Shown here piece by piece: positions 1-15,953 of a stretch of DNA of 15,953 nt. The notes under the pieces are model-generated. The model was not told the origin of the DNA. It saw only the letters and a program-made list of their open reading frames with translations, and made no database searches. The DNA comes from Promethearchaeota archaeon. Lineage in GTDB: Archaea > Asgardarchaeota > Lokiarchaeia > Sigyniarchaeales > SOKP01. Position 1 is the stretch's first letter; every line of letters starts with the position of its first letter. The DNA lies in assembly GCA_048941265.1 (NCBI GenBank), contig JBHLNT010000092.1:1-15953 (forward strand). The letters run 5' to 3'. The position numbers were made by a program, and so were the translations under genes.

Positions 1-176
1 GGATCATCTAGCTCTGGAACTTTTCTTCCCATTTTTGGAAATGAGTTTAATTTTTCAACTTTTTCTTGCAGTTGTTCGAAAAATAATGATGCATATTGAG
101 GTGAGTCTTGAGCAATATAATCAATAATTTCAAGCAAATCGTTTTCTGCTATGGCTGCCCATTCTATTTCGACCAT
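1..176 (-). CDS. ParE/RelE-family type II toxin, runs off the window at its 3' end (not in the ORF track)
   Basis: Manual translation from ATG at 176: MVEIEWAAIAENDLLEIIDYIAQDSPQYASLFFEQLQEKVEKLNSFPKMGRKVPELDD. This is the typical ParE pattern (W...A..DL..I..YIA.D.P..A...L..FP.MGR.VPE). It overlaps the upstream small gene by 13 nt. Confidence 0.9.
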   Translation of the reverse strand, partial: MVEIEWAAIAENDLLEIIDYIAQDSPQYASLFFEQLQEKVEKLNSFPKMGRKVPELDD

Positions 177-364
177 TTTTCTAGTCTCTTCTTAACATTA
201 TCCATAACTTGTTCATGAGGAATTGATTTGCCTTGCTCAACTTCTTGAAGACCTATTAATATTTTTTTTTTAACATAAAGATGATACATGATATCATCTA
301 AAGTAGCGTCTTCAGGTAACTTTTTTATTAGGTCAATGACTTCTTCTTTTAGATTTGTAGTCAT
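164..364 (-). CDS. Antitoxin of the ParE/RelE pair
   Basis: 66 aa, immediately upstream of and overlapping the toxin. LPEDATLDDIMYHLYV...GL.EVEQGK.IPHEQV resembles small antitoxins that precede ParE. Confidence 0.8.
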   Translation of the reverse strand: MTTNLKEEVIDLIKKLPEDATLDDIMYHLYVKKKILIGLQEVEQGKSIPHEQVMDNVKKRLEKWSK

Positions 365-1099: not shown

Positions 1100-2347
1100 T
1101 TATAATTTTCTCCAATTTTTATATGGTACATCTTTTGTCTCTATTGTAATTCCAGTTAGTTCTTTAAATTTATTAAATTCAGCAATAATATAATTTTGTC
1201 TTTCATGAGGTTCTTTGCTGTATGGTACTTCAATTAAATAATAACCTTCTATATTTTTGTCTTTAAACATATTACGTTTAAAATTATCTCTTCGTAATAA
1301 TTCTTGCCATTTTTTATAAAGCAGTTCATATTCAGTAGAACCAGCTTCTAGATTAAATTGTCTCGAGACTGCTTTATAAGCTTCAAATCCTATTTCCTCC
1401 TTAGGATCATGTTGTTGACCTTGAAATTCTATTGCAAGTTTAATATAATTACCATTTTTATCTTTGATATTTAATTCAAAATAACCATCAACATGAACAG
1501 CATGATGGATTCTGCCTTCTAACTCTGGAAATATTTTTATAAGGCTGTGTTCTGTTTTATAATTACCTTCAATATAACCTAAATAATCAAAAACATATTT
1601 AGCAATAGCATTTGTAATTTTCTGATTAACTAATCGACTATCACATATCGGACACGCCCCTATATTTCTTTCAATATTATGACGTGTATTCTCCCACACA
1701 TGCCCGCATGGATCTCCATTCTTTTTAGCACCATGTTTCCATTCTAGAATTGCATATCTTTTTGGAACTCCATTTTTTAGTTTTTTTAAGGCTTGTTTAA
1801 ATTCAAATTCATCGGATATTAATATTAATCCTTTTTCTTCTGCTAAATTTAGAGCTTTATTATATTCTGCTAGTTCTTTTGAATCTAATATTGGGCGATT
1901 TAAAATTTTCGCCTGAGCGGCTTCAAAAGTATTAACACCATAGTGAGTTTGGAAGGATCTTTTAATTAATTCTTCATCTCCATCAAAAAGTTTAAATAAT
2001 TCTTCTTTCGTGAGACCTTCTTTGATCAATTTCTCAACTCTTTGTTTTTTGAATACGGGGGCAGAACCTGCTTGTTCACCTATTACCATAATAACATCAT
2101 CAGGTTTAAGGCGAAGTTCGGCAATTTTCATGGAGTTAGGTATCACTTTTCCGTTGATAATAAACTTATAATCTAAAATTTGGTTGAGTTCAAGTTCATT
2201 TATAATATCTTCCTTAATGTCTTCAAAGCTAGCTTTTGAATTTTCGATGGCGATTGCTCTTATTGCTTGACCTGGAGAAGCTCCTACAATTCTAAAATTA
2301 ATGGTTTTTCCATTGTTTTCGGATAGGAAATTTACCCTTCCATTCAC
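1100..2347 (-). CDS. Ubl-domain fusion with Zn-ribbon and PD-(D/E)xK (DUF559/Vsr-like) nuclease; candidate toxin
   Basis: GTG start with GGTGA 4 nt upstream. Residues 1-95 show a beta-grasp pattern (F.I.NGK.I...I.EL.L...D.I.VI.EQAGS). CGHVW...CPIC is a Zn ribbon. HVDGYFEL...LAIEFQGQQH...RDNFKR...LIEVPY are restriction-fold nuclease motifs. Confidence 0.75.
   Translation of the reverse strand: MNGRVNFLSENNGKTINFRIVGASPGQAIRAIAIENSKASFEDIKEDIINELELNQILDYKFIINGKVIPNSMKIAELRLKPDDVIMVIGEQAGSAPVFKKQRVEKLIKEGLTKEELFKLFDGDEELIKRSFQTHYGVNTFEAAQAKILNRPILDSKELAEYNKALNLAEEKGLILISDEFEFKQALKKLKNGVPKRYAILEWKHGAKKNGDPCGHVWENTRHNIERNIGACPICDSRLVNQKITNAIAKYVFDYLGYIEGNYKTEHSLIKIFPELEGRIHHAVHVDGYFELNIKDKNGNYIKLAIEFQGQQHDPKEEIGFEAYKAVSRQFNLEAGSTEYELLYKKWQELLRRDNFKRNMFKDKNIEGYYLIEVPYSKEPHERQNYIIAEFNKFKELTGITIETKDVPYKNWRKL
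2298..2336. repeat. 39-bp perfect direct repeat, copy 1 (candidate attL)
   Basis: ttaatggtttttccattgttttcggataggaaatttacc, identical to 13096-13134. Confidence 0.85.
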
Positions 2348-2370
2348 GTTTTCACCGGATTTCAGAGAGA

Positions 2371-2378
2371 TTTAAATA
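2371..2378. promoter_or_regulatory. Archaeal TATA box in the 72-bp divergent intergenic region
   Basis: TTTAAATA (TATTTAAA on the minus strand). The same octamer occurs in the paralogous intergenic region at 13169-13176. Confidence 0.55.
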
Positions 2379-2419
2379 CTTGTGTCCCGTTCATTTCGTA
2401 AAAAGCTATATGGAAAAAA

Positions 2420-2938
2420 ATGAGGAAGAAAATGAAAACAAAAGGAGAGAAGTACAATTATGTATACATGCAATTTGCGGTTTCTCCAAGTGAGAGAAAT
2501 TTGATAAAATCAATGGCAGAAAAGGAAAGATATAAAACGACTTCTGAATTTTTAAGAAGACTTATTTTTGATTATATCAGAAGAGAAGAGAATCCCGAAC
2601 TTATCAATGGTACCAATGATGGCAATTTAAATTCAATTATTTTAGAAGATATCTCAAAAAATATCAGAGAAGCTCTGAAAAACCAGGAAATCATACTGGA
2701 CCGGGAGGACGCATTTGAACAGATGAGAAAAATGGTAGTAAATATCCATAAACTCGTTGAGGCAGGTTCGTTAGAGGAAGAACGTAATATTATCACTCAG
2801 TTGTTAAAAGAACATAATTCTCTTACTATACATATGATTCAAGAAGAAACTGGATTACCCAAAGATGTAATCTTCAAAATTATTTCCGATATGAACATTT
2901 TTAAATTAACTACAACAGGGAGGTTTACCCTCCGATGA
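2420..2938 (+). CDS. Ribbon-helix-helix + coiled coil + winged-HTH DNA-binding protein
   Basis: N-terminal YMQFAVSPSERNLIKSMAEKERYKTTSEFLRRLIFDYI is CopG/RHH-like. C-terminal LTIHMIQEETGLPKDVIFKII...TTTGRF is wHTH-like. ATGA overlap with the integrase; paralog of 13208-13726. Confidence 0.75.
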   Translation: MRKKMKTKGEKYNYVYMQFAVSPSERNLIKSMAEKERYKTTSEFLRRLIFDYIRREENPELINGTNDGNLNSIILEDISKNIREALKNQEIILDREDAFEQMRKMVVNIHKLVEAGSLEEERNIITQLLKEHNSLTIHMIQEETGLPKDVIFKIISDMNIFKLTTTGRFTLR

Positions 2939-3849
2939 CTAAAGTCACCAATCAACAAATCATCGATCGTTATTTGGATAGGTTTAAACACTCCAAGCCA
3001 TCAGTAGCGTCTAGAAAATACTCACTTCAATATTTCTTCCAGGATCGGTATTTTGGCTATAAGGGTCATGTATTTGATATTAAAAAGCAGGATGTTATAG
3101 ATTACTTTGATTATTTGAATGACTTGGACACAATCTGCTTAGTAACCAAGGAACATAAATGGACTTATTTTAGAACATTTCTAAAATTTGTAATGGAGTA
3201 TTACGATGATTTTATCATTGTAATTCCCCATTATAGTATAAAGTGGAAACCGATTCATAAAAAACCTGATTCTAATAAAGATGTTGTGATGAGTAAAGAT
3301 GAAGTAAAACAAATTTTGGAACATTCATATCAGCATAATTACCAATATTACATCATGGTTCGTCTTTTAACAGAAACGGGGATGCGCCGTGGAGAGCTCC
3401 TCAGCATTAATACTCAAGATGTAGACGTTAAAAGAAGATTTATAGAAACCCAAGGAAAAACGGGAAGGAATGTTTATTATTATTCAATAGGACTAGCGAA
3501 GCATTTAACCATCTATTTAAAAGAGAGAATATTAAAGGATGTTCCCAATGAAGCACTATTTCTCTCAAAATATAAGGAAAGGTATTCACCCCGCTCTATA
3601 AATAATTATTTATCCAATTGTACGGACCGATTAAATATCAATAAGCGGATTTCAACCCACACCTTTAGGAGAACATTAAATACATTAAGAAAATTGATGG
3701 GATGTCCTAGTGAAGACCGTAAAATTCTATTATGTCATAAGGTCAATGACGTGAATTTCAGCTGTTATGTGAAGTTGAATTACAATGACTATATTAATCT
3801 CTATGATAAATGGAACCCCTACAAAAACTTATTTGAATCCAGTTCGTGA
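2935..3849 (+). CDS. Tyrosine recombinase/integrase (XerC/D-like fold)
   Basis: Full catalytic set visible: ETGMRRGEL (R), QGKTG (K), HTFRR (HxxR), LLCH (H), SCYVK (Y). 304 aa including an N-terminal core-binding region. Confidence 0.95.
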   Translation: MTKVTNQQIIDRYLDRFKHSKPSVASRKYSLQYFFQDRYFGYKGHVFDIKKQDVIDYFDYLNDLDTICLVTKEHKWTYFRTFLKFVMEYYDDFIIVIPHYSIKWKPIHKKPDSNKDVVMSKDEVKQILEHSYQHNYQYYIMVRLLTETGMRRGELLSINTQDVDVKRRFIETQGKTGRNVYYYSIGLAKHLTIYLKERILKDVPNEALFLSKYKERYSPRSINNYLSNCTDRLNINKRISTHTFRRTLNTLRKLMGCPSEDRKILLCHKVNDVNFSCYVKLNYNDYINLYDKWNPYKNLFESSS

Positions 3850-3868
3850 AACATCACTCTTTGCAAAC

Positions 3869-3887
3869 AGCGCCGGTATCCGGCGCT
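3869..3887. other. GC-rich hairpin downstream of integrase 1 (terminator or recombination-related)
   Basis: agcgccgg-tat-ccggcgct is a perfect 8-bp stem. A third arm, gcgccgga, lies at 3896-3903. Confidence 0.5.
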
Positions 3888-4063
3888 ACTCAAGGGCGCC
3901 GGAAAGTCCCACAATGATAAATGTAGGACAATATTAGTTCAATTATCTGGATTAAGTTATTCTCCGCACGTGTTAGTATTATATTATATATAATAAAATT
4001 CCGTATAAAAAAAATTAGGAGCGTTGGAGGATTCTATTTAATTTTTCGATCAAATTATAACCG

Positions 4064-4261
4064 TCAGGTTTGGGGATTATCGAAATATTCATCAATAAAA
4101 TGAGTTTTAGACTGCTTAATTATCTTCCATGCTTTAATTAGGTCTTTTTGTAGCCTCTTCCTCTGTAAGTTATCTTTTTTCAATTGAACCAATAATTTAG
4201 CTCGCTTTAAACGTTTCTGATCAAACCATTTTCTAAAGTTTTTTTTCTCTTCGTTGCTCAT
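4064..4261 (-). CDS. Small basic hypothetical protein
   Basis: 65 aa, ATG start, K/R-rich and helical; 23 nt downstream of 4285-4707. Confidence 0.55.
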   Translation of the reverse strand: MSNEEKKNFRKWFDQKRLKRAKLLVQLKKDNLQRKRLQKDLIKAWKIIKQSKTHFIDEYFDNPQT

Positions 4262-4284
4262 CGAAGTGTAATCTAAAATGTCTA

Positions 4285-4707
4285 TTAATCCCTCAACTCA
4301 AATTTGTAATCTGTACTGAAATCTCCTCCCAGCTTTTCCATAGTAAACTTATGTGTATTTAAATTTTCGAAATTAGACACTAAGAATTGGGCAAATTTCT
4401 GTGATGCTTTATTACCTAATTCCAAAAAACAAATATTATCACCTTTAATCGAGGGAATTCTTCCATGGTTCTTTTCATTTGTCATCTTAATATAATATAA
4501 TATTGTTCTAGTCGTAATCTCGAAGTCCATGAATTCAATGGCAAATTGCCATCTTGCACCTGTTAGTTTGCCATCATAAGTTTTTTCTATAAGCATTGGT
4601 GGTTGATTAATATCTAGAAGATGGAAGCTATATTTAATTCCACTAGAAATGGGGATGAAAATGCCATTTTCAATTTTTAAATCATTTAACTGCTTTAAAT
4701 ATTCCAT
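4285..4707 (-). CDS. Hypothetical protein, possibly a phage-type OB-fold ssDNA-binding protein
   Basis: 140 aa, beta-rich. C-terminal FTMEKLGGDFSTDYKF resembles the (R/K)xGxG..T.Y motif of gp32-like SSBs. AAAGGA lies upstream of the ATG. Confidence 0.45.
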   Translation of the reverse strand: MEYLKQLNDLKIENGIFIPISSGIKYSFHLLDINQPPMLIEKTYDGKLTGARWQFAIEFMDFEITTRTILYYIKMTNEKNHGRIPSIKGDNICFLELGNKASQKFAQFLVSNFENLNTHKFTMEKLGGDFSTDYKFELRD

Positions 4708-4778
4708 TATTCCTTTCTCCGATTTTTATTTTTTCTTTGTTCGATTGTAGTTATGATAAAATCTATTAATTTTATTAA

Positions 4779-4812
4779 TAGTACAAACTAATGTATTTAA
4801 CTTTTTGTACTA
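4779..4812. promoter_or_regulatory. Inverted repeat (operator-like) upstream of 4285-4707
   Basis: tagtacaaa-N16-tttgtacta; the spacer contains the TATA-like tatttaa. Confidence 0.45.
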
Positions 4813-5474
4813 CACAAGCCATGTAACTAATTTTAATTATGATTGCATAATGCTTTCCTTTTACAAAGTAAATAATCTAATGAATCCTTTTTGATAAAAC
4901 TGAACGGAAATGTAAATCTTTTGAGAATTGGTCTATTGATTCACGAAAATTGAATGTAGTGTAAATCTTAATTGCCGTACGAAAACAGTACTTCAAGAGA
5001 AATCTGTTGATCTCTATATAGAATTAACAAAACTCAAGTAGTATTTTAACTCGTAGTGTCAAAGAGCGTACTTAATCTCTCAAAAAGTGAATTTATTTTT
5101 GTGCGTACATTGTAGGGACAACTTCTTATAATATTAATTTCGGATGATAGGAGTTTCACGAAAAAAATGTTCTTTTTGAATTTTCACGTTTACATAAAGC
5201 ACGGAAAATTGGTTTTATTTAGCAATATTAACCCGATCTTGATTGCGAAGATTTTTAATAATCTTTTTTTTTGTTTATTATAATGTTATCAAAAATATAT
5301 CTCTTAATGAAATTAAGAAAAAAACATTGTTATATAAAAGATTATTATTTGAGTGAATGCTAACTTTTTGTGCTGATAATGTTTCAAATGTATGGAAAAA
5401 ATTTGAGGATACGAAATAAGTGAGCAAATGCTCTTTAATATAGAATTTAGAGAGGTATAAGGTGAAGAACAAAT

Positions 5475-6191
5475 ATGACTGAACCAGAGTCAAATAAGGA
5501 AGAAATGAGTATTGATTTAAATCCAGAATTCAGATTTATGATGACTATGAATTTAGATGTATTTTTTAAGTCATGTAAAGTCAACTTTTTTGTCGAAACG
5601 GCACGCGACCGATTCATAATATGGTATCAAACGCCGGACCGTCAAATTTACAGCCCTCTAATGATTACCTTTAAACAAGTCCTAAGAGGTGATTTAACTC
5701 ACAAGCATTGCGATTTGAGGTACAAAATAAGGGGTAATTTGATTTCGATATTCAAGAAATGGTATCCCGAAATGAACATTAAAAAATATCAGAATGAAAT
5801 CGTGGAAAAATTCGCATTTCAAATTAATAATTTAGCCCTTAATTTTATTGAAGCTAGACAACAAATTGAACTTGAACTCGGACCGCTTCCCCAAGCTTTT
5901 TCAACTTTTCTAGAAATTAATTTGCCCAAAACGAGCGAAAGATTAGATATCATTGATAGGAACGCGCTAAAAATGTACAATGAAAAAGCCCAAGCCAACC
6001 GATGGTTAAAAATTAGAGATCTTGATGAGTTGGCATATTATATATCACAAAAACTCCCCGAATATAAATGTAGCGCCGCCCGAAAGGTCTATCGAGACAT
6101 AAATGAAATTAGGCAAAGAAGAAAGATAGTTATGTGCGATTTTCAATCCATCGCCAATGAAATCAGCAATAGATTAGATCAATTAAAGTAG
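5475..6191 (+). CDS. Hypothetical 238-aa protein
   Basis: ATG with GGTGA upstream (aaggtgaagaacaaatATG). No family recognised. Confidence 0.7.
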   Translation: MTEPESNKEEMSIDLNPEFRFMMTMNLDVFFKSCKVNFFVETARDRFIIWYQTPDRQIYSPLMITFKQVLRGDLTHKHCDLRYKIRGNLISIFKKWYPEMNIKKYQNEIVEKFAFQINNLALNFIEARQQIELELGPLPQAFSTFLEINLPKTSERLDIIDRNALKMYNEKAQANRWLKIRDLDELAYYISQKLPEYKCSAARKVYRDINEIRQRRKIVMCDFQSIANEISNRLDQLK

Positions 6192-6239
6192 TGATCCTCC
6201 CATCTTATCATGGAATTAGTGAAGAAAACCAAGAAATGT

Positions 6240-6412
6240 AAATGGCGTTTTAAAACAAAAAAATTAAAAAAAAATTGCGGGAATAACATTTCATTTTTTC
6301 AACAAAAAATCATTACTCATACAAAAAATTAAAAAAATTGTTATCATTAAAAAATACCCTAGATGTGATATTTTCCATTCTTTTTTTTTTTCTTAACTTG
6401 AAAACGCCATTT
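6240..6412. repeat. 173-bp segment bounded by 12-bp perfect inverted repeats
   Basis: aaatggcgtttt (6240-6251) and aaaacgccattt (6401-6412), with an internal A-tract direct repeat at 6255-6277 and 6321-6340. Confidence 0.55.
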
Positions 6413-6531
6413 TAAACTAGAGGGCTTGGTTCATTATTCTAATCTAGTTACTGTTATTTGATAAAAAGATAAAATACATATTTTTGAATCATTTTTTATA
6501 TATTGAAAATAAATTCTACTTGTGAATAATA

Positions 6532-7194
6532 ATGAAAATTGAATCTTATGAACCATTCCACATTGGATCTAAATTCATTTACTATGTCGATAAAGCTCAT
6601 TTACTAGCAAAATTATATGAGTACTACGTAACTAATAAGGATAAAGGTTTTGAATTATATTCTGATATTCCTAGAGGAGATCAGCCTTTTTTACCCATTC
6701 TTAATATCTTATCAAATCCTAAAGAAAAATTAACCCTTCAAATGAATCTTACTGCTAACGCATTAAATGTTATTGGTAATGATCCAAAAAAGGTAGTAGA
6801 ATTCTTTATTAAATTAATGAGAAATTTACCAGATTTAGGTTTTGAATTAGATTCAACATTTACTTTTTATGAAATTCTTACAAATATAATATTATTATTA
6901 GACGCAGAAGATAAGACCCCTGTTGAGATATTTAATAAATTTTCTTCAAATATTTTTGAAAACCTAGAAGATCTTCCAAATTTAAATGTAAATTATATTA
7001 GATTTTCAGACGAACTAGTATCAAAAGAAAGTGACGAGCGATTTAATTTTGAAATAATCCCTAATCAAACTAGTCCAAATAAGAGAATTATTTTAAAAAT
7101 TCTTAAAAGAGTTAAAGATTATCAAGAATTAATAAAGTTCCAAGAAAGATTAAATAATATAGTACAAAAGATTTTTGAAAAGTTGGTGAAATAA
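6532..7194 (+). CDS. Hypothetical 220-aa alpha/beta protein, first gene of a three-gene operon
   Basis: ATG start; its stop abuts the next ATG (TAAATG). Only vaguely reminiscent of TIGR04255-like proteins. Confidence 0.7.
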   Translation: MKIESYEPFHIGSKFIYYVDKAHLLAKLYEYYVTNKDKGFELYSDIPRGDQPFLPILNILSNPKEKLTLQMNLTANALNVIGNDPKKVVEFFIKLMRNLPDLGFELDSTFTFYEILTNIILLLDAEDKTPVEIFNKFSSNIFENLEDLPNLNVNYIRFSDELVSKESDERFNFEIIPNQTSPNKRIILKILKRVKDYQELIKFQERLNNIVQKIFEKLVK

Positions 7195-7932
7195 ATGGAT
7201 ATCTGCCAATTTGACGAACCTCTAATTGCAACAAACCAGAAACCCAATCCTCTAATTGTTAAGCACGAGTCGAGTACATCGACTCGAAAAGATTTTCAAT
7301 ATCAGAATAATACTTCATCAACGACTCTTTCCTTTGAATTAGAAACTAGTGGTATAAGAGAAGATCCAATACCTACTACTGCCTCATTTGACTATAAAGA
7401 ATTTACAAGTAATTTGGAACCAATCATAACATCCATGTACAATATAAATGCGATCCTAAAACCATTACTACAGATACAATGTGCTTTAGAACCTTTAATA
7501 GAGATACAGAGATCGCTAAGACCTATGCTTGAAATGCAGAGGCAATTAGAACCGTTAATAGAAATAAATTCATTTCTTGAACCATTGATTAGGATTCAAA
7601 CATCAATCGAAAATCTTATAAAATTATCACATTTAGGAATTGATGAAACTAATGATTCTCAGGAAAATGAAGTACTTGAAAAGACTTCAAAAATTAATTT
7701 GGAGCCAATGATCAAAGATCAGCAGCACTTTAAAAATTTTTATGATCGTGAAAAATGGGTTGAAAACCAAAGAAAAAACTACCCTAAAGAACTGATTGCA
7801 TATATCAAAAAGAATGGAGAATTTGTGTTAATTGCTCATTCTAAAATTGAAAAAGAACTTCTTAAACAAATAGATATGCTCTTTGAAAAAAATGTTATTG
7901 ATCAAGAAGATATTATTTACTTTGATAGTTAA
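7195..7932 (+). CDS. Protein with 10-aa tandem repeats and a DUF5678-like C-terminus
   Basis: L(E/K/R)P(L/M)xxIQxx repeats with a 30-bp period from 7456. C-terminal WVENQRKNYPKELIAY...LIAHS resembles the small domains that precede clan AA proteases. Confidence 0.65.
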   Translation: MDICQFDEPLIATNQKPNPLIVKHESSTSTRKDFQYQNNTSSTTLSFELETSGIREDPIPTTASFDYKEFTSNLEPIITSMYNINAILKPLLQIQCALEPLIEIQRSLRPMLEMQRQLEPLIEINSFLEPLIRIQTSIENLIKLSHLGIDETNDSQENEVLEKTSKINLEPMIKDQQHFKNFYDREKWVENQRKNYPKELIAYIKKNGEFVLIAHSKIEKELLKQIDMLFEKNVIDQEDIIYFDS

Positions 7933-7945
7933 GGTTAATTAAAGA

Positions 7946-8449
7946 ATGGAAATTGATATTGATAAGTTAAAAGAAAGTTCTTTGGAATTTAATAAAAAAT
8001 TACGGCTTCCTATAAATACATTAAATATAAAAATCGAAGATAATTGGAAGAATTTTACAAATTTCATATCTGAATTGATTGAAATTGATTCAGGTCGCAA
8101 ATTTAAGACTGAATTAAGTATGGTCCTAATCGACACGGGTAATGAAGCTAATTTCATTGTAATGAGTGCTTATTATCTTAATACCTTTAAATCTAAAATT
8201 AAGGAAATCGATTTAGAACAAAAAATAATAGAAGATTTTGTAGGTAATGAAAGATTGACTGAGGTAACAACTGAAAGTTTTGAATTTAAGATTTTTAATG
8301 CTCTTTTTAAATCGAAAATTGGTTTTACTTACCAAACGAATGTTAATGCATTGGATATCATTAATGTAGGGATTAATGCTATTCGACAATATCTTAATTT
8401 GATTTTTTTAGCTGGTTCTAAAAATTACTATTATTGTTCTAATATCTGA
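7946..8449 (+). CDS. Retropepsin-like (clan AA) aspartyl protease
   Basis: Catalytic motif VLIDTG and a C-terminal hydrophobic-Gly motif IINVGINAIRQY. Confidence 0.7.
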   Translation: MEIDIDKLKESSLEFNKKLRLPINTLNIKIEDNWKNFTNFISELIEIDSGRKFKTELSMVLIDTGNEANFIVMSAYYLNTFKSKIKEIDLEQKIIEDFVGNERLTEVTTESFEFKIFNALFKSKIGFTYQTNVNALDIINVGINAIRQYLNLIFLAGSKNYYYCSNI

Positions 8450-8476
8450 TTGGAACCAAGAAATCCCTTAGAAGAA

Positions 8477-8504
8477 TCAGAAAAAGGAAAGCATAGTGGG
8501 AGGG
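8477..8504. repeat. GC-rich intergenic repeat, copy 2 (degenerate)
   Basis: tcagaaaaaggaaagcatagtgggaggg; 22/28 identical to 543-570. Confidence 0.65.
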
Positions 8505-8563
8505 TGTCCATAAATTAAAATAAAGGAGTATTTTAAATTAGCATATACTTAAATTTTAAAAAT

Positions 8564-8905
8564 CTAAAAATCAATTTCCATTTCTCTATATTGAAAGTAT
8601 TTTTCAAGGAATAGATCTAAACAACAAATTACTATTTTTCCTTTAGTATCTTCATTGATATTAAAATATTCTTGGTTGTTATCTAATAATGGGATTATTA
8701 TTTTATTTTTGATATAATTTAAAAACTCATCTGAAAAGAAATGATCTACTACTATCCTTTTATTATAATATTGCTTAATGAAATCATTGATAATATCCTC
8801 TTGATTTTTAGTTGGATTTTCTTCAATATTATCGATAAAACGCTCAATGAAACTGAAAATGCGTTCCCTAACAGGTTCTTCAAATTCTGGATGTAATTTT
8901 TTCAA
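8564..8905 (-). CDS. Acidic helical hypothetical protein, candidate orphan immunity cassette
   Basis: 113 aa, TTG start with GAGATGA upstream, flanked on both sides by the GC-rich repeat. Confidence 0.6.
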   Translation of the reverse strand: MKKLHPEFEEPVRERIFSFIERFIDNIEENPTKNQEDIINDFIKQYYNKRIVVDHFFSDEFLNYIKNKIIIPLLDNNQEYFNINEDTKGKIVICCLDLFLEKYFQYREMEIDF

Positions 8906-8971
8906 TTTTTCATCTCTAGTTATTATTATATTGTTTTAAATAATACAACAGATAAGATAAATTAATATTTT

Positions 8972-9006
8972 TCAGTTGGAGGCAAGCACGGTGGGAGGGA
9001 GGTAAT
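8972..9006. repeat. GC-rich intergenic repeat, copy 3
   Basis: tcagttggaggcaagcacggtgggagggaggtaat. Confidence 0.85.
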
Positions 9007-9023
9007 GGAAAGATAAGATGTAA

Positions 9024-9836
9024 TTAGTAATAAAAAAATCCCACGGACCTTTCAAACTCATTAAGCATTTGAATTACTTCGGCAGAAAATTTCTTCTTTA
9101 ACTCAGGATTGAATTCTAAAAGTTTTAATTTTTTTAGATTCTTCAAAGTTAAGGGTAAGTTAGATATTTTATTATATCCAAAATTAAATTTCTGTAAGTT
9201 CTTCAAATTTCCTATTGAATCATGAATTAACTCGATATTATTATAAGAAATATTAAACACTTCTAGGTTTTCTAAGTTCCAAATTGAAGAAGGTAAGTCG
9301 TTTAAATTGTTATACATCAAATTTAATTTTTTTAAAGCTTTCAAATTGCCAATTGATTCAGGGATTTTTTTTAAATTATTATAAGATAGATCTAAGTATT
9401 GGAGATTTTCTAATTGATTTATTGATTCTGGTAGGAATTCTAATTTATTACGTTCTAAAATTAATGCTTTTAAATTTTTAAATTTGGATATATCTTGGGG
9501 GATAATATCAATTTGATTTCCGGATATATCTAAGACAGTAAGATCTTTTAATTCAAGGATTTCATCAATAAAGCGGTTTAATTCAAGAGATACTAAAACT
9601 AAATGTTTTATTCTCCCGTCTCTAACATTTATTCCATTTAGAAGCCCTTGACCTATGATTTCAAATTCTATTTCTCTTTCATCCTTTCCAGATTCAATTT
9701 CATATAAATATAAATCATTTGGATTCTGAAATTCATTCTTTTTTAATAAGACAATATTTCTTCCAATTTTTTTTTCCAAAATTTTCAGAATTTCATAATC
9801 CCTTTCATTTAATAAAATATTCATAAAATTTTTCAT
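9024..9836 (-). CDS. Leucine-rich repeat protein (23-aa repeats)
   Basis: About 6-7 LxxLxLxxNxLxxLPxSIxNL repeats. The start is probably the ATG at 9836 (GAGATGG upstream) rather than 9869. Confidence 0.9.
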   Translation of the reverse strand: MKNFMNILLNERDYEILKILEKKIGRNIVLLKKNEFQNPNDLYLYEIESGKDEREIEFEIIGQGLLNGINVRDGRIKHLVLVSLELNRFIDEILELKDLTVLDISGNQIDIIPQDISKFKNLKALILERNKLEFLPESINQLENLQYLDLSYNNLKKIPESIGNLKALKKLNLMYNNLNDLPSSIWNLENLEVFNISYNNIELIHDSIGNLKNLQKFNFGYNKISNLPLTLKNLKKLKLLEFNPELKKKFSAEVIQMLNEFERSVGFFYY

Positions 9837-10006
9837 TTTTACCATCTCTATATGTAGCTTAGTAATCAATAATCTATTAAGAACCTATTATTTTTATTAA
9901 AAAAAACTGTTTATACTTCTCGTACATTAATTACTCTAGGTATCTTTATTTGTGGATAATATTGTTCAAATAAATCTAAAGAATACAGGCAAGAATCACA
10001 GAGCAA

Positions 10007-10026
10007 GCAAGCACGGCGGGGAGGGA
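10007..10026. repeat. GC-rich intergenic repeat, copy 4
   Basis: gcaagcacggcggggaggga, the core of copy 1 with one extra G. Confidence 0.8.
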
Positions 10027-10131
10027 AATATAGAATAAATATAGAAAAGAGTGAATTATTATTAAAAATTTAATATTTATTCAGGATTCATCAAAAAATG
10101 AGTATTGAAAGAATTGAAATCTGCTAAAAAA

Positions 10132-11469
10132 TTATAAATCATAATAGTGACGCCACCATTTTAATCTATCCTCTTCATTCTCCAAATCTGGATTTAAATA
10201 AAAGTATTTTTCATAAGGTTCTAACTCTTCTTTTGGAATTAGGGGATCATTATAAAAATCTTTTCTCAACACAATATATTGAATACTTTCAAGTACCTCC
10301 AAACCCTTAGTGCTTGTAATGAGGTTTCCACATAAATAAATTTCCTCAAGATTGTGAAGGGCTTCTAAACCAGAAATTTCCTTGATTTGATTATGGGTGA
10401 GATCTAATTTTTCTAAATCCTTTAAATTCTCTAATCCTTTTATCTCTTTTATCTTGTTATGGTCAAGAATTAAATATTTTAGGTTAGAAAGTGCGTTTAA
10501 ACCCTTGATTTCATTAATTTCATTTTCTCCAAGATCTAAAGAAACTAGTTTTACACACTTATCTAATTTACCAATCTCTGAAATATTATTCCCAACTAAT
10601 AATAAAGAATTGAGCTCTGATAGCGTTTCAAGCCCACTTATTTCATTAATTTGATTATAATGCAAGTATAAAAATTCTAAGAGATTCTGAGATTCAAGCC
10701 CTTGAATCTTTTTAATACTATTATTTCCAATTCTAAGATCTTTTAGGTTAATAAGAGTTTTTAATCCCTTGAGTTCTTTAATTCGGTTATTATTCAAGTA
10801 AAATTCCCTTAAATTAGTTAAATCTTCGATATTCTTGATTTCCTCAATTTGATTATGGCTAAGGTGTAATTCTCTTAACTTCTTCAAGTGTTGGATTCCC
10901 TTAATTTGTGTGATGTTATTGTGGCTTAAATATAAGAATTCTAATTGATTTAGATTTTCAAGTCCCTTGATCTCCTTAATTTGATTATAATTAAAAGATA
11001 TTTTTTCTAAATTCCTGAGATTTTCAAGTCCCTTAATTTCCTCGATTTTATTTCCAGATAGTTCTAAAATTGTTAAGTTTTTAAGATTTTCAAGTCCGCT
11101 AATATTTTTAACCTGATTATTATTTAAACTCAGATACTTAAGCTTGGAGAGATTTTCAATTCCAGTCATCTCCTCAATTTTATTATTATATAAGTACAAA
11201 TATTCTAAATTTTTAAGGTTTTCAAATCCTTTAATTCTTTTTATCATATTATCATTTAAGGATAAACTTTTAAGATTCACAAGTGTATCGAGACATTGTA
11301 CTTTTGAAATGTGATTGTGATGAAGACTTAAGCCCTTTAATTCCTCAAGTGATTCCAAACCCTCAATTTCGGAAATGGTCTTAATCTCCCTATCATTTAG
11401 AAGCAATTCACCTTGATTAACATATACCTTGTGTCCTTTTATAGTTACATAATCTCTATTTCTTTCCAT
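10132..11469 (-). CDS. SDS22/internalin-like LRR protein (22-aa repeats), candidate cognate immunity protein
   Basis: Roughly 16-17 LxxLxLxxNxIxEIKGLENL repeats. ATG with GAGATG upstream; 65 nt downstream of the Ubl-deaminase gene. Confidence 0.92.
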   Translation of the reverse strand: MERNRDYVTIKGHKVYVNQGELLLNDREIKTISEIEGLESLEELKGLSLHHNHISKVQCLDTLVNLKSLSLNDNMIKRIKGFENLKNLEYLYLYNNKIEEMTGIENLSKLKYLSLNNNQVKNISGLENLKNLTILELSGNKIEEIKGLENLRNLEKISFNYNQIKEIKGLENLNQLEFLYLSHNNITQIKGIQHLKKLRELHLSHNQIEEIKNIEDLTNLREFYLNNNRIKELKGLKTLINLKDLRIGNNSIKKIQGLESQNLLEFLYLHYNQINEISGLETLSELNSLLLVGNNISEIGKLDKCVKLVSLDLGENEINEIKGLNALSNLKYLILDHNKIKEIKGLENLKDLEKLDLTHNQIKEISGLEALHNLEEIYLCGNLITSTKGLEVLESIQYIVLRKDFYNDPLIPKEELEPYEKYFYLNPDLENEEDRLKWWRHYYDL

Positions 11470-11534
11470 TTAAATTACATCTCGAGAATATTTTATTCTT
11501 AAAACGCTTACATATTATAAAAATCTTTTTTACT

Positions 11535-13136
11535 CTATAGGAACATGTAATAAAAACTAATTTCAGGATACATCTCTCTAAGATTATTCTCAAATTTATT
11601 AATATTTTCATTGCAATTAGGACAAAAAGACTCCTCTGATGTAAGAACAATGGTTCCTGCGTCTATATCATCCATCAGCAAGTTCTCTAAATTAATAATA
11701 GATATTCTCTCTCCACATAGCGGATTAAAATATCTATCATCGGGCTGTTCTTCTAAGCTGTTTATGATATATTCTTTTCCTGTATCTGGATCTTTAGCCA
11801 ACCATTCAACGGGATATCTTTTTGAATAGTAGTTCGAATAAATATATACTAAACCCATTCTCGTTGCATCAGGGACGCGCAATCCAGGAATGGGAGTTTT
11901 ACTAGAACGAGTTACCGTAATTCCTAAATTAACAGAACCTCCTGGTTTTTCAAATTCAAAATAGGTTAGAGTGAATTTTCCACCTATCAAATTTCCCCTA
12001 TATCCTCTCATAATTTTATCATTGGTTACTTTATCTCTATCTTTTAATTGTTTGACGACATCATCGTTAGCCCCAAAATTAAAATTATCCCTAAGAAATT
12101 CATTTAAATCATTTATCATGGTTTGTTTGGAATTCTTATCGCCAATAAGATTTATAATTTGGGCACGAGCACCAGGGTAATCATAGATATCCTGAAATTC
12201 AATTCGTCCATCTTGATTTCTCGTTTCTTTCAAAAGTTTTTTAAAATGATTATCAATAAGTTTTCCGACCTTCCCTGGTAAATTCTCTTTGAAATCTAGT
12301 ACGATACTTTTTAAGTAAGATAATTCATAAACTCCAAGTTCTGTGGGATTTTTAAGAATATCCATAATATTAAAATCTGTTGCACTTTGTATGGCACCAT
12401 CTTCAGTTTTTATAAATTTCCTGAAACCTTCGTTTCTAAGCTCGTTATTCAATTCAATAAAACTAACGAAATTCTCATCATTTGCATCTGAATATAAAAA
12501 GGCTATTTCCTTAAACATTTCAAATAATTCTCTTGAATTATCAGAAATTAATTCTTGTTCAATAAGTAAATCTGTGATTTTATCTATAACTTGTTGTTTT
12601 TGCCCTTCAATATTACCTAGATCAAACCCTAGTCTCCTAGCCATAGTACTATCGATCTTACAAATATGATACATTACTTCAAGGATTAGATTGAGTTTAC
12701 CTACATCATTTGCATCCTGGAATCTGTTTATAAAGCCATTTTCTGAATTACTCCAATAATTTCTATCTCCTGTTATTTCTCTGAAAAAGTTGGTAATTCC
12801 ATATCTATAATCAAATATTGAATTTATCTCATAAGCAATAACTCCAAGTTCGCCTCCTTCGCCTAGGTGTTTGGAGATTACAGTAATGATATCCTTTTTA
12901 AGATTAAAACCGAGTTCTTTCAGCGTTTTTACATCAGTAATTAATTTTCCGTTGAAAATTATTTCAATATCTAAGAGGGGGTTGAGTTTAAGCTGATTTT
13001 GAATTTCATTCTTGATATCTTTTATATTGGCTTTAGAATTTTCGATGGTTATAAGCTTGATAGCTTGGTCCGGAGCAACTCCTAATTGTCTAATTTTAAT
13101 GGTTTTTCCATTGTTTTCGGATAGGAAATTTACCAT
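11535..13136 (-). CDS. Ubl-domain fusion with helical linker and C-terminal Zn-dependent deaminase-like toxin domain
   Basis: Residues 1-95 are about 53% identical (46/86 by manual alignment) to the Ubl of 1100-2347 and end in LGEGG. The C-terminus LCGERISI...GTIVLTSEESFCPNC...INKF...MYPEISF fits the toxin-deaminase signature. Confidence 0.7.
   Translation of the reverse strand: MVNFLSENNGKTIKIRQLGVAPDQAIKLITIENSKANIKDIKNEIQNQLKLNPLLDIEIIFNGKLITDVKTLKELGFNLKKDIITVISKHLGEGGELGVIAYEINSIFDYRYGITNFFREITGDRNYWSNSENGFINRFQDANDVGKLNLILEVMYHICKIDSTMARRLGFDLGNIEGQKQQVIDKITDLLIEQELISDNSRELFEMFKEIAFLYSDANDENFVSFIELNNELRNEGFRKFIKTEDGAIQSATDFNIMDILKNPTELGVYELSYLKSIVLDFKENLPGKVGKLIDNHFKKLLKETRNQDGRIEFQDIYDYPGARAQIINLIGDKNSKQTMINDLNEFLRDNFNFGANDDVVKQLKDRDKVTNDKIMRGYRGNLIGGKFTLTYFEFEKPGGSVNLGITVTRSSKTPIPGLRVPDATRMGLVYIYSNYYSKRYPVEWLAKDPDTGKEYIINSLEEQPDDRYFNPLCGERISIINLENLLMDDIDAGTIVLTSEESFCPNCNENINKFENNLREMYPEISFYYMFL
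13096..13134. repeat. 39-bp perfect direct repeat, copy 2 (candidate attR)
   Basis: Identical to 2298-2336; offset 10,798 bp. Confidence 0.85.
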
Positions 13137-13168
13137 TTCATCTCAAAAATCACTAAAAACACAAAGAG

Positions 13169-13176
13169 TTTAAATA
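13169..13176. promoter_or_regulatory. Archaeal TATA box in the 71-bp divergent intergenic region
   Basis: TTTAAATA, conserved with 2371-2378 while the flanking sequence diverges. Confidence 0.55.
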
Positions 13177-13207
13177 ATGCCGAAGCTTGTGTGCGATATA
13201 ACAAGAT

Positions 13208-13726
13208 GTGATTAATATGAAAGAAAAACAAAAGTCAACCAAAAGCAGCTACGAATACAGATACATTCAATTCGTTGTCAGTCCGAAAGAAAAGGAAAAG
13301 ATTGAGGAATTTATGACAAAGGAAAATTTTAAGACACAGAGCGATTTTATTAGGAGGATTATCTTTACGCACATTCGCAAACAAGAAAACCCTGAACTAT
13401 TCATCTCAAGCAATGATTCAAATATAAATCCAATTGTACTTGAAAGGATTGCAAAAAATACAAAAGAAATTCAAGAACTCATATCACAGAGAGAAGATTC
13501 ATTAGAAGAAATGAGACAAATGGTTTTAAATTTACATAAGCTCGCCGAACAAAACGCCTTAGCAAAAGAAAGAGAAATTATTATAAAACTATTAGAAAAA
13601 CACACTTCATTATCACTTAGACAAATTGAAGAAGAAACTGGTTTAGCCGAAGATGTAGTCTTTAAAATCATATCCGATATGAATATATTTAAAATTACAA
13701 CATCAGGTAGATTCGCATTACGATAA
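13208..13726 (+). CDS. RHH + wHTH DNA-binding protein, paralog of 2420-2938
   Basis: YIQFVVSPKEKEKI...KTQSDFIRRIIF (RHH). C-terminal EEETGLAEDVVFKIISDMNIFKITTSGRFALR is nearly identical to copy 1. The start may be the ATG at 13217. Confidence 0.75.
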   Translation: MINMKEKQKSTKSSYEYRYIQFVVSPKEKEKIEEFMTKENFKTQSDFIRRIIFTHIRKQENPELFISSNDSNINPIVLERIAKNTKEIQELISQREDSLEEMRQMVLNLHKLAEQNALAKEREIIIKLLEKHTSLSLRQIEEETGLAEDVVFKIISDMNIFKITTSGRFALR

Positions 13727-14634
13727 CTAATCAGCAAATTATTGACAGGTATTTACAGAGGTATAAGCATTCAAAATACTCAGTATATTCCCGCAAATAT
13801 GCACTCGGCTATTTTTTTGAATCAAGATACTTTGGTTTTGAAGATCATGTATTTAATATAAAGAAACGTGATGCAATTGATTATTTCGACTATTTAAACC
13901 ATAAAGAAGACCTCTGTCTTGTAAGTAAAATGAATAAGTGGAATTATTTTAGATCATTTCTCCAATTTTGCATGGAATATTACGATCTGGTAGTGGTTAT
14001 CCCTAAATATTCCGTGAACTGGAAGCCACTTCACAAAGAAGCTGATTCTAACAAAGATGTGGTAATGACTAAAGAAGAAGTAAAACGGATACTTAAGCAC
14101 AATTTAAACTATAATTATTATTACTATATTCTTTTAAGAATATTAACCGAAACAGGCATGCGTGTTGGGGAATTTCTCAGCATTGACATTGAAGATGTGA
14201 ACGTGGATAAACGATATGTTGAAACTCAAGGGAAGACAGGAAGGAAGATCTACTACTTCTCAAACGGATTAGCCAAACACTTAGCAATCTATCTGAAAGA
14301 ACGGGAATTGAAAGACTGTGAATGCAAAGCGTTGTTCCTTTCCATCCAGCGACAAAGATACAGACGCAGGAGCATTAATAATTATATACAAAGATGCGTT
14401 AGGAAAATAGGGATCGACAAGCGGATTTCATGCCATACTTTTAGACGAACCTTAAACACGCAGAGGAAAAAGATGGGATGCCCAAAAGAGGATAGGAAAA
14501 TCCTACTCTGTCATAAAGTCAGCGATGTCAATTTCCAATGCTATGTAAAGCTCAACTATGATGATTACATCCGCTTATATGACAAATGGAATCCGTATAA
14601 AAACATCTTAGACGGTAGATCTCGGAATATTTAG
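13723..14634 (+). CDS. Tyrosine recombinase, paralog of 2935-3849; full-length frame begins at ATA 13723
   Basis: The frame is open for 69 codons upstream of ATG 13930 (ITNQQIIDRYLQRYKHSKYSVYSRKYAL...) and matches the N-terminus of integrase 1. Catalytic ETGMR, GKTG, HTFRR, LLCH and CY are intact. Confidence 0.9.
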   Translation: MTNQQIIDRYLQRYKHSKYSVYSRKYALGYFFESRYFGFEDHVFNIKKRDAIDYFDYLNHKEDLCLVSKMNKWNYFRSFLQFCMEYYDLVVVIPKYSVNWKPLHKEADSNKDVVMTKEEVKRILKHNLNYNYYYYILLRILTETGMRVGEFLSIDIEDVNVDKRYVETQGKTGRKIYYFSNGLAKHLAIYLKERELKDCECKALFLSIQRQRYRRRSINNYIQRCVRKIGIDKRISCHTFRRTLNTQRKKMGCPKEDRKILLCHKVSDVNFQCYVKLNYDDYIRLYDKWNPYKNILDGRSRNI

Positions 14635-14978: not shown

Positions 14979-15953
14979 TTAGTCGATCATTCGCAGTTTC
15001 TTGCCCCTTCCCTTCATGTCATCTATCTTTCCCGTGTTTTGCAAAGTGTCAATTGCTCTAATCTTATCTTTCATCTTACCCTTGATTTTCTTATAAATCT
15101 TACTTTTAGGTAAATTTTCAATGTCTCCATCGAGCATTTCAACGCCCATTTTCAAGCTGTTTAAGTTAATGAAATCCGTTGGATCGACAACATCCTTGAG
15201 AGAGTTTGATAATAGATAGATACTTTTGTTTTTATCCCTTATAGGTCGGATTCTATGCATGGCTTGAAGTTCTTCTGCCTTTTCAAACCATTCTACTTCT
15301 TTCATGTTATATCCTCTTAATCCCAGCAACATTTGAACCGCTGGTGTGAGTCCAAATCTTCCAAAAACAATGATATTTTCGCAATCTTCGTGCTTATTAT
15401 AACCTCTGCTGTCTCCATAATGACCCGTCTTTACTTCGGGAAATTTCTCAATGAAATGACTTTCAAATTCCTTTTTAGTATAAATCAAAGTTTTATCATT
15501 CATTGGGATGTTTAAAACTCGAAAGTAATTTTCCGCATTTTCCAGTTCTTCTTCAGTTTTCACCTTAGTCATTAGGTCTTCCAGTAGAAATATTCTGTTT
15601 TCCAGCGTTTCCCCATCTAAGATAACAATATCAAATTCCCGATTGAATATTTTCTGAGCAACGGATAATTTCGTTGTAGCACAGTTAAAAACAACTGTTT
15701 CAACTTGCTGTAAGAAATTTAGTGGGGTATCTCCAATAATAACATGATTTCCGTTATCATCTTCTACAGCATAAATATTGTCTAACGTATCATAATTGTA
15801 TTTGAAAAAATGTTCTTCTAAGGATTCAGGTTCAAAATCATCCATTTCAAGCGTTTTATAGAGGGTAAAATAACAACCCCTCTGTCCTCTGTGTTCTTTT
15901 CGCCAGTCTGAACACTTATTTCTACAAATGCATGTATTACAGTTTACCCTTTC
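14979..15953 (-). CDS. SF2 helicase-like protein of mobile-element type; its 5' end lies outside the window
   Basis: The frame stays open from 15845 to the window edge (ERVNCNTCICRNKCSDW...GCYF). VVFNCAT is motif III-like, HYGDSRGYN...IIVFG is motif V-like and EELQAMHRIR is motif VI-like. Confidence 0.65.
   Translation of the reverse strand, partial: ERVNCNTCICRNKCSDWRKEHRGQRGCYFTLYKTLEMDDFEPESLEEHFFKYNYDTLDNIYAVEDDNGNHVIIGDTPLNFLQQVETVVFNCATTKLSVAQKIFNREFDIVILDGETLENRIFLLEDLMTKVKTEEELENAENYFRVLNIPMNDKTLIYTKKEFESHFIEKFPEVKTGHYGDSRGYNKHEDCENIIVFGRFGLTPAVQMLLGLRGYNMKEVEWFEKAEELQAMHRIRPIRDKNKSIYLLSNSLKDVVDPTDFINLNSLKMGVEMLDGDIENLPKSKIYKKIKGKMKDKIRAIDTLQNTGKIDDMKGRGKKLRMID

Follow-up and report, generated by a model that had tools for sequence, protein, structure and literature searches.

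An in-frame 39-bp repeat in two toxin-like genes as a candidate attachment site of tandem integrase elements in a Promethearchaeota genome

A single contig of a Promethearchaeota archaeon (assembly GCA_048941265.1, contig JBHLNT010000092.1; 15,953 bp, analyzed over its entire length and called the window below) carries two minus-strand toxin-like genes, tox1 and tox2, each of which is divergent from its own regulator-integrase pair and each of which holds, within its first codons, the same 39 bp. This repeat is real and not a chance match, and comparison with related genomes suggests that it is probably the attachment (att)-like core of two tandem integrative elements that carry toxin bodies, such that integration or excision would swap these bodies between gene starts while keeping them in frame. 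The window belongs to a 5.0-Mb metagenome-assembled genome (MAG) of 361 contigs and 30.5% G+C.

The two copies of the repeat, at 2298–2336 (codons 5–16 of tox1) and 13096–13134 (codons 2–13 of tox2, right after the ATG), are equal at 39/39 nucleotides at a spacing of 10,798 bp and form the longest exact repeat in the window, with the runner-up measuring only 17 nt. Read on the minus strand, each copy spans the final base of the prior codon, 12 codons that encode VNFLSENNGKTI, and two further bases, with GTG-AAT-GGA-AGG preceding copy 1 and ATG directly preceding copy 2. The reading frame across the repeat is the same in both genes, so that an exchange between them would leave both open reading frames (ORFs) intact. 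The archaeon's own genome has no third copy, whether 3 mismatches or as many as 10 substitutions are allowed, and a search that tolerated 3 mismatches did not find the 39-mer in any of 153 further genomes from the order.

Evaluating codon choice revealed how sharply this identity is confined to the repeat. All 12 of the 12 leader codons are identical between the copies, whereas the paralogous regulators use the same codon at 43/89 conserved degenerate residues and the integrases at 76/197 (39–48% for these neighboring genes), and the ubiquitin-like (Ubl) domain outside the leader does so at 23/35. In ungapped 30-nt windows, identity runs at 63–73% to the left of the repeat, 100% inside it and 40–60% to its right. 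The original prediction, made from the letters of this stretch, had described an exact repeat free of synonymous change amid regulators and integrases with many such changes, and our counts bear out both descriptions, as they do its placement of the repeat within about 85 bp of each integrase operon (84 bp from copy 1 to the start of reg1, and 74 or 83 bp from copy 2 to the start of reg2, depending on whether a GTG or an ATG is taken). The imperfect dyad TTTCC-N14-GGAAA that it noted can likewise be read in both copies, and only its figure of about 53% identity for the Ubl region needed correction, to 50.5% over 93 aa with the leader and approximately 42% (35/83) without.

We propose that the 39-bp repeat would be an attL/attR-like core common to two related tandem elements, each of which comprises the site with an adjacent, divergently oriented regulator-integrase operon, a set of cargo genes, and a toxin-like body at the far end that reads back into the next site. 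The translatable site is closely preceded, on the regulator side, by a start codon and by a TATA-like box, which is TTTAAATA in both divergent intergenic regions (at 2371–2378 within 2337–2419 and at 13169–13176 within 13135–13207) and presumably marks a promoter, such that a circular element would carry a gene complete with its start, its leader and its toxin body. Were it to integrate at a resident site, two bodies would be swapped in frame, with the incoming body gaining the resident start and promoter and the displaced body being read from the element's own start. Under this scheme unit 1 would extend over 2337–13134 and comprise reg1, int1, cargo, leucine-rich-repeat genes and the tox2 body, unit 2 would begin at 13135 and run off the contig, and the tox1 body would represent a displaced or previous cassette. 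Recombination between the copies, as read from the sequence, would give just what the original prediction had anticipated, namely a circle of 10,798 bp and two hybrid genes, each in frame, whose starts and promoters are exchanged. We infer that the integrases Int1 and Int2 would catalyze this exchange, that it may still be occurring, and that the crossover would fall within the site region.

Each of the two modules consists of a regulator and an integrase gene. The plus-strand gene reg1 (2420–2938; 172 aa) has a NikA-like ribbon-helix-helix (RHH) N-terminus that scores below the Pfam threshold (23 bits vs a cut-off of 27), and it is followed on the same strand by int1 (2935–3849; 304 aa), which encodes an Xer-like tyrosine recombinase whose catalytic set (R, K, H, R, H, Y) is complete. 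The second module, also on the plus strand, is made up of reg2 (13208–13726; 172 aa), whose nearest relative is in G145:C59, and int2 (13708–14634), an open frame with homology to int1 from 13723 and intact catalytic residues. The paralogues share 54–56% identity (reg1/reg2) and 68% (int1/int2), both integrases match PF00589 (E 2.5e-21 and 4e-23), and residues R151, K175, H242, R245, H268 and Y278 are invariant in 11/11 aligned integrases. The integrases are nearest to archaeal XerA, XerA being the best PDB match (4e-14) with IntI4 at 6.7e-4, and the specialized profiles scored far lower than their cut-offs, at 80.4 and 90.4 bits vs 220 for the XerA equivalog NF040815 and 42.8 and 49.4 bits vs 265 for the integron integrase TIGR02249. 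In trees, int2 and reg2 group with their counterparts in G145:C59, which belongs to another genus, with support of 100/99 and 96/96, and stand apart from int1 and reg1; because module 2 is placed there and not with module 1, the two modules are, on this phylogenetic evidence, different lineages and no local duplication.

To place the repeat among relatives, we compared Promethearchaeota genomes of the family and 63 metagenome loci recruited by integrase alignment, with regulator homologues being present in 22/134 other genomes of the family. In one genus, g11, a conserved site of ~75 nt lies upstream of the regulator in the same orientation in 7/7 modules that have upstream sequence, at a distance of 50–100 nt in six modules and ~240 nt in the other (L038), and the opposite strand of this site reads in frame as VNSESDFNEN.... 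Among 10 metagenome modules (selected for 60% or greater integrase identity to Int1, a regulator that could be detected and no less than 150 nt of upstream sequence), 9 have the site at the same place, and within the clade its place beside the regulator-integrase pair is near-fixed, in 16/17 modules; loci with integrases of lower identity (L191–L215) had no site in any. Between modules that are 84–90% identical, homology begins at the site and the DNA past it is unrelated. The window itself fits this pattern at its right end, where the 39-mer plus the copy-1 flank agrees with the site consensus at 17/18 positions and the 10 nt of intergenic region 1 that adjoin the site match the consensus flank of relatives; random genome windows scored as high in 0.25% of cases for copy 1 and 2.8% for copy 2.

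The site is also translated in relatives. An in-frame body of at least 300 aa is headed by 11/17 of the regulator-proximal sites, most other sites have 9–46 codons after them, and a VN(F/S)xS...-type leader precedes unrelated bodies, including Ubl fusions in three genera. The Ubl fusions in G098:C13 and G146:C234 begin with a site-type junction as well and encode it with other codons, so leaders differ from one genome to another, and the two within the window are the same. At one of these junctions (L167, from G146:C234, 351–500), the upstream ORF stops at a TAA inside the site's GGTAAAT, one frame off the following Ubl body; either the junction is frameshifted or the cassette is a silent orphan.

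Evaluating units further, we found a second co-oriented site 3.7–10.8 kb downstream in 10/16 units with at least 3.5 kb of sequence. The window's partner sites are perfectly identical over 39 bp, those of G051:C168 over 31 bp and those of L180 over at least 30 bp, the last stretch being bordered by two masked bases. Two further tandems of two modules were recovered, in G081:C129 and L180, and the latter has in-frame S24-like bodies of 404 and 381 aa at both sites, with C-terminal parts of the tox1-like nuclease type that match tox1 at 47–52%. The far sites of L039, L037 and L183 are each embedded in frame in a longer ORF, with 1008, 727 and 214 codons preceding them, respectively; the upstream ORFs of L039 and L037 match no family, and the near-site bodies of these two loci use the same frame, so that exchange would keep the ORFs open there too. 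Separately, three sites (L036 12413, L037 2276 and L177 2352) are hybrids that combine a left half TTTCATTG... with a right half ...TTGACC or GTGACC, and all three are by our reading regulator-proximal, as expected of recombinant joints, in what is a small sample. Truncated integrase remnants were also seen 30–220 nt from a site with no regulator between (L220 488–980, L221 9783–10276, L218 and L227), with those of L220 and L221 beginning at the same residue, 164.

A number of observations weigh against the integrative reading. No second site was found in 6/16 units, where 3.7–11 kb was available, the partner pair of G081:C122 has only a 16-nt common run, and the variable central triplet is common to only 4/7 partner pairs, counting that of the window. 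The window is not matched by the g11 site profile (which has only weak matches in the archaeon's own genome, with a best E of 0.0037), homology of the left 30 nt depends on a hand alignment (17/26), and no site was recognizable in G145:C59, the nearest relative of module 2, or in 4 other non-g11 modules. The sole dyad in the window's site has arms of 5 nt. In g11, the site occurs in up to 49/54 genomes vs 6/54 for the integrase and 11/54 for the regulator, so its conservation cannot rest on this integrase alone, and co-oriented arrays of the site are found with no integrase within ~7 kb. Searches of metagenome contigs for an exact 29-mer and of viral contigs for integrase relatives each returned 0 matches. 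Lastly, int2 has no ATG, GTG or TTG before 13930. The same is seen in the sister integrase of G145:C59 (L044), as both lack a canonical start and have in common an in-frame upstream IRIT that overlaps the end of the regulator; because the sister has this feature, the missing start may reflect unusual initiation rather than decay, and in both, initiation at a rare start codon or fusion to the regulator by frameshifting could be the explanation.

Also on this side of the balance, no direct product of recombination was seen, be it a junction, a circle or an empty site, with the Logan contigs breaking inside the repeat. Five runs from two studies contain the stretch as Logan contigs (k=31), and these end inside the 39-mer, so that none of the four junction combinations is phased and they offer no evidence either way; the joints that were listed have sides of 21–34 nt and are located elsewhere. 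An orthologous empty site for the G051:C168 unit was sought with both flanks in the 54 g11 genomes and none was found, the trunk having no orthologue there and the left flank matching almost only via the site. The original prediction of stacking, payload-swapping elements is partly supported, by genome comparison, in that the repeat would mark the boundary of tandem regulator-integrase elements, while no product of excision or integration has come to light. Two further lines were considered and set aside: matching of the central triplet between partners was rejected as a signal, since 4/7 is not above chance given how common TCT is, and attC-like hairpin folding of the site was rejected as no better than shuffled sequence (six folds over three regions and both strands, z-scores of -0.99 to +0.28 against shuffles).

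The strongest competing explanation, which we nonetheless regard as unlikely, is that the leader is simply a conserved junction, at which ordinary homologous recombination or gene conversion swaps or homogenizes cassettes, with the integrases using another site or being irrelevant and the 39-bp identity reflecting a recent conversion patch; the VENN or Rhs junctions of bacterial polymorphic toxins offer the comparison here. In its favor, the site family has a much wider distribution than the integrase, even where no integrase adjoins, sites link large upstream ORFs with toxin-type bodies of the Ubl or S24-like kind (e.g., G098:C13), and codon identity is also raised in the adjoining Ubl codons (23/35 vs 119/286 in regulator plus integrase). 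Yet a tract of 39 bp (30–31 bp in two other loci) is short for exchange between sequences of ~65% identity, identity falls steeply at both edges of the repeat, the place of the site beside the regulator-integrase pair is near-fixed (16/17 clade modules), and module homology starts at the site.

Selection without any recombination could also keep 39 bases alike, if they served as an operator or 5' leader element that controls the divergent toxin and regulator-integrase promoters, either by binding the RHH regulator or the integrase or by acting in the mRNA. RHH proteins bind such repeats, the site stands at the start of the toxin transcript region ~35 nt from a common TATA-like box, and it contains small dyads; still, we consider this improbable, because the regulators are only 54–56% identical and the promoters between the genes 40% and yet the site is 100% identical, because in relatives the site recurs at the far ends of units and as solo copies with no nearby regulator, and because no strand folds better than shuffled sequence. 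Hardly credible, finally, is a local tandem duplication of the toxin-regulator-integrase block that diverged with the 39-mer kept by chance or peptide constraint, or else an assembly artefact. The two blocks are indeed collinear paralogues and the genome is indeed a MAG in 361 contigs, but the trees unite module 2 with a module of another genus, 12/12 leader codons are identical vs 39–48% in neighboring genes, and the leader varies among homologues in other genomes; as for an artefact, independent Logan contigs, assembled for two samples of a single study, extend over the flanks on either side of each copy and show 0 differences.

A broader proposal, which we put forward as speculative and doubt more than we believe, is that the 39-mer belongs to a family of ~75-nt translatable sites that would form a hairpin-free, integron-like system of Lokiarchaeia-type Asgard archaea. 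In such a system, Xer-like integrase platforms, with a promoter and start beside the primary site, would capture ORF bodies in frame, and the co-oriented arrays in up to 49/54 sister-genus genomes would be cassette arrays or scars. Listed adjacent pairs in the g11 site arrays were co-oriented in 24/24 cases. As an observation apart, arrays of 3–5 co-oriented ~75-nt sites, spaced 0.5–3 kb, occur in G089:C37, G059:C1 (853–856 kb), G061:C26, G049:C79 and others (L162–L165), with single accessory genes between the sites (GNAT acetyltransferases, alpha/beta hydrolases, an esterase and a beta-helix protein), and one array adjoins a class I (LeuRS-like) aminoacyl-tRNA synthetase gene. The g11 arrays could have been left behind as scars by successive rounds of integration and decay, or could constitute a separate cassette system.

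Turning to the payloads, tox1 (1100–2347, minus strand, with a possible GTG start at 2347; 415 aa) is composed of the leader, a Ubl domain and a C-terminal part for which the nearest Atlas clusters are of the treble-clef and DUF2726/DUF559 type, suggestive of a treble-clef zinc finger and a restriction-endonuclease-like domain. In tox2 (11535–13136, minus strand; 533 aa), the leader and a Ubl domain ending in GG are followed by a C-terminal domain for which Toxin-deaminase PF14424 clusters are nearest in the Atlas (score 0.91, 183 shared features), and bodies in related loci give weak PF14424 matches. Pfam found no match in either protein apart from one weak ubiquitin match. The original labels of deaminase for tox2 and nuclease for tox1 are therefore retained as leads from the Atlas clusters and not as family assignments, and the toxin assignments as such are leads of the same kind.

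The Ubl domains of both proteins resemble a small free Ubl present in 127/154 genomes of the order, and since the free Ubl aligns only from residue 14, the 13-residue leader appears as an addition. Among 5.8 billion proteins, those of 293–933 aa with leader plus Ubl comprised solely the window's own protein. Neither window gene has a long N-terminal trunk or delivery region, as both start at the junction. The Ubl domain of tox2 ends in GEGG (12852–12860, residues 93–95) and the host's free Ubl (G000:C323 9209–9442) in AGG, with AGS at the equivalent stretch of tox1, and a protease cleaving after GG could free the toxin domain of tox2.

Immunity candidates were identified by position. A 128-aa ORF on the minus strand follows tox1 (631–1017); it has no family match and is co-conserved with the C-terminal part of tox1 in G059 and G144. 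Downstream of tox2, two minus-strand leucine-rich-repeat genes (9024–9869 and 10132–11469) are candidate immunity genes on the same grounds, and a leucine-rich-repeat gene also lies downstream of a site-led body in G081:C129; an immunity role in the elements is what we would presume for them. The remaining cargo of unit 1 (4064–8905) is made up of seven ORFs without a family match, and gene X (14979–15953, minus strand) is cut by the contig end and adjoins the integrase in related elements, its homologue in G081:C129 having a weak P-loop-like stretch.

Several features stand apart from these units. A G+C-rich motif of 38 nt (core GGCAAGCACGGCGGGAGGG) is present four times, always in the same orientation (543–580, 8477–8514, 8972–9009 and 9997–10034), each time directly downstream of a minus-strand gene (the immunity or leucine-rich-repeat candidates), and was not found elsewhere in the 5-Mb genome or in any fetched locus. 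At the window start, we read the six-frame translation as a ParE/RelE-type toxin and antitoxin pair (3–364, minus strand), and the 411-nt block there is 75–83% identical to blocks in many family genomes, sometimes in several copies per contig; positions 1–411 were considered as a conserved host anchor for the empty-site search and rejected, as they hold this multi-copy ParE/RelE-type pair. A tRNA scan of the window returned 0 genes, an Rfam scan gave only a sub-threshold snoRNA match, and small-subunit rRNA is absent from the MAG.

If the attachment-site reading is true, these elements would offer a site-specific route to the turnover of toxins together with immunity genes, of which no description in archaea was found in the literature searched. 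Were the site active, integration would also rewire the pairing of promoter and toxin body, with the displaced body kept expressed from the element's start. The 39-bp site and the 304-aa integrase represent a testable recombination substrate in Asgard archaea, for which, to our knowledge, almost no mobile-element biochemistry exists, and the widespread ~75-nt repeat family may indicate where hot spots of gene acquisition lie in these genomes.

Among known systems, the window carries the features of a tyrosine-recombinase element, with the catalytic R-K-H-R-H-Y set, direct repeats that bound the unit and a regulator-integrase pair 84 bp from copy 1. A Xer/dif resolution system is a poorer fit, as dif-type sites have 28 bp with 11-bp inverted arms, whereas the sole dyad here has 5-nt arms and NF040815 stays below its cut-off. 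Archaeal integrative plasmids and viruses of the SSV and pNOB8 types have perfect att repeats of ~40–60 bp, usually in tRNA genes. Our units resemble these in having an intact integrase by one end, perfect direct repeats of similar length and sizes of 6–12 kb, and differ in that there is no tRNA in the window, the att-like site lies in frame in a coding leader and the integrase is Xer-like. Orphan toxin/immunity cassettes of the CdiA-CT, Rhs and MafB systems have a conserved junction before variable toxin domains, and their exchange is thought to be homologous. With them the elements share the conserved junction, displaced bodies beside an expressed gene and candidate immunity genes downstream, but here an integrase-regulator pair stands at the junction, which in the window opens the gene itself, no trunk preceding it. 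Aloposons were considered as a similar system and dropped, as the paper shows giant-gene elements at tRNA sites.

Genomic islands with dusA-specific integrases (Farrugia et al. 2015, PMC4482086) likewise involve a tyrosine-integrase island, inserted at the 5' end of a gene that codes for a protein. They differ in that here the target is a toxin-type gene or dispersed site and not a housekeeping gene, the element would bring its own gene body such that both products are complete and payloads swap, and the host is archaeal with tandem stacks in 3 loci. Integrons, including archaeal ones, have an integrase divergent from a primary site, with a promoter and start facing the first cassette, in the part of the description available (Ghaly et al. 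2022, PMC9668308). To that extent they are matched by the divergent integrase, the primary site with its promoter and start, and the co-oriented sites that separate single accessory genes in sister genera, and they differ in that our integrases score far short of the IntI cut-off, the site lacks a hairpin and is translated in frame, and units carry their own integrase; nor do the window and its genome hold an integron-like site array, the site being present there in only two copies. The integrated mobile genetic elements of Atabeyarchaeia, as far as their published account is at hand, have tyrosine integrases, with unrelated integrases using one common attachment motif of 11 bp (Valentin-Alvarado et al. 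2024, PMC11529989). The same portion of that account neither describes the 11-bp motif as coding nor reports a toxin swap, and the common motif parallels the two diverged modules of the window with their one 39-mer. Our literature search found no prior description, with the attC lists of Ghaly et al. and the supplementary element tables for Asgard mobile genetic elements lying outside its coverage. Integrase elements with att repeats and exchangeable toxin cassettes are both known already, and what is new here is their combination, the in-frame position in a 5' leader and the archaeal host.

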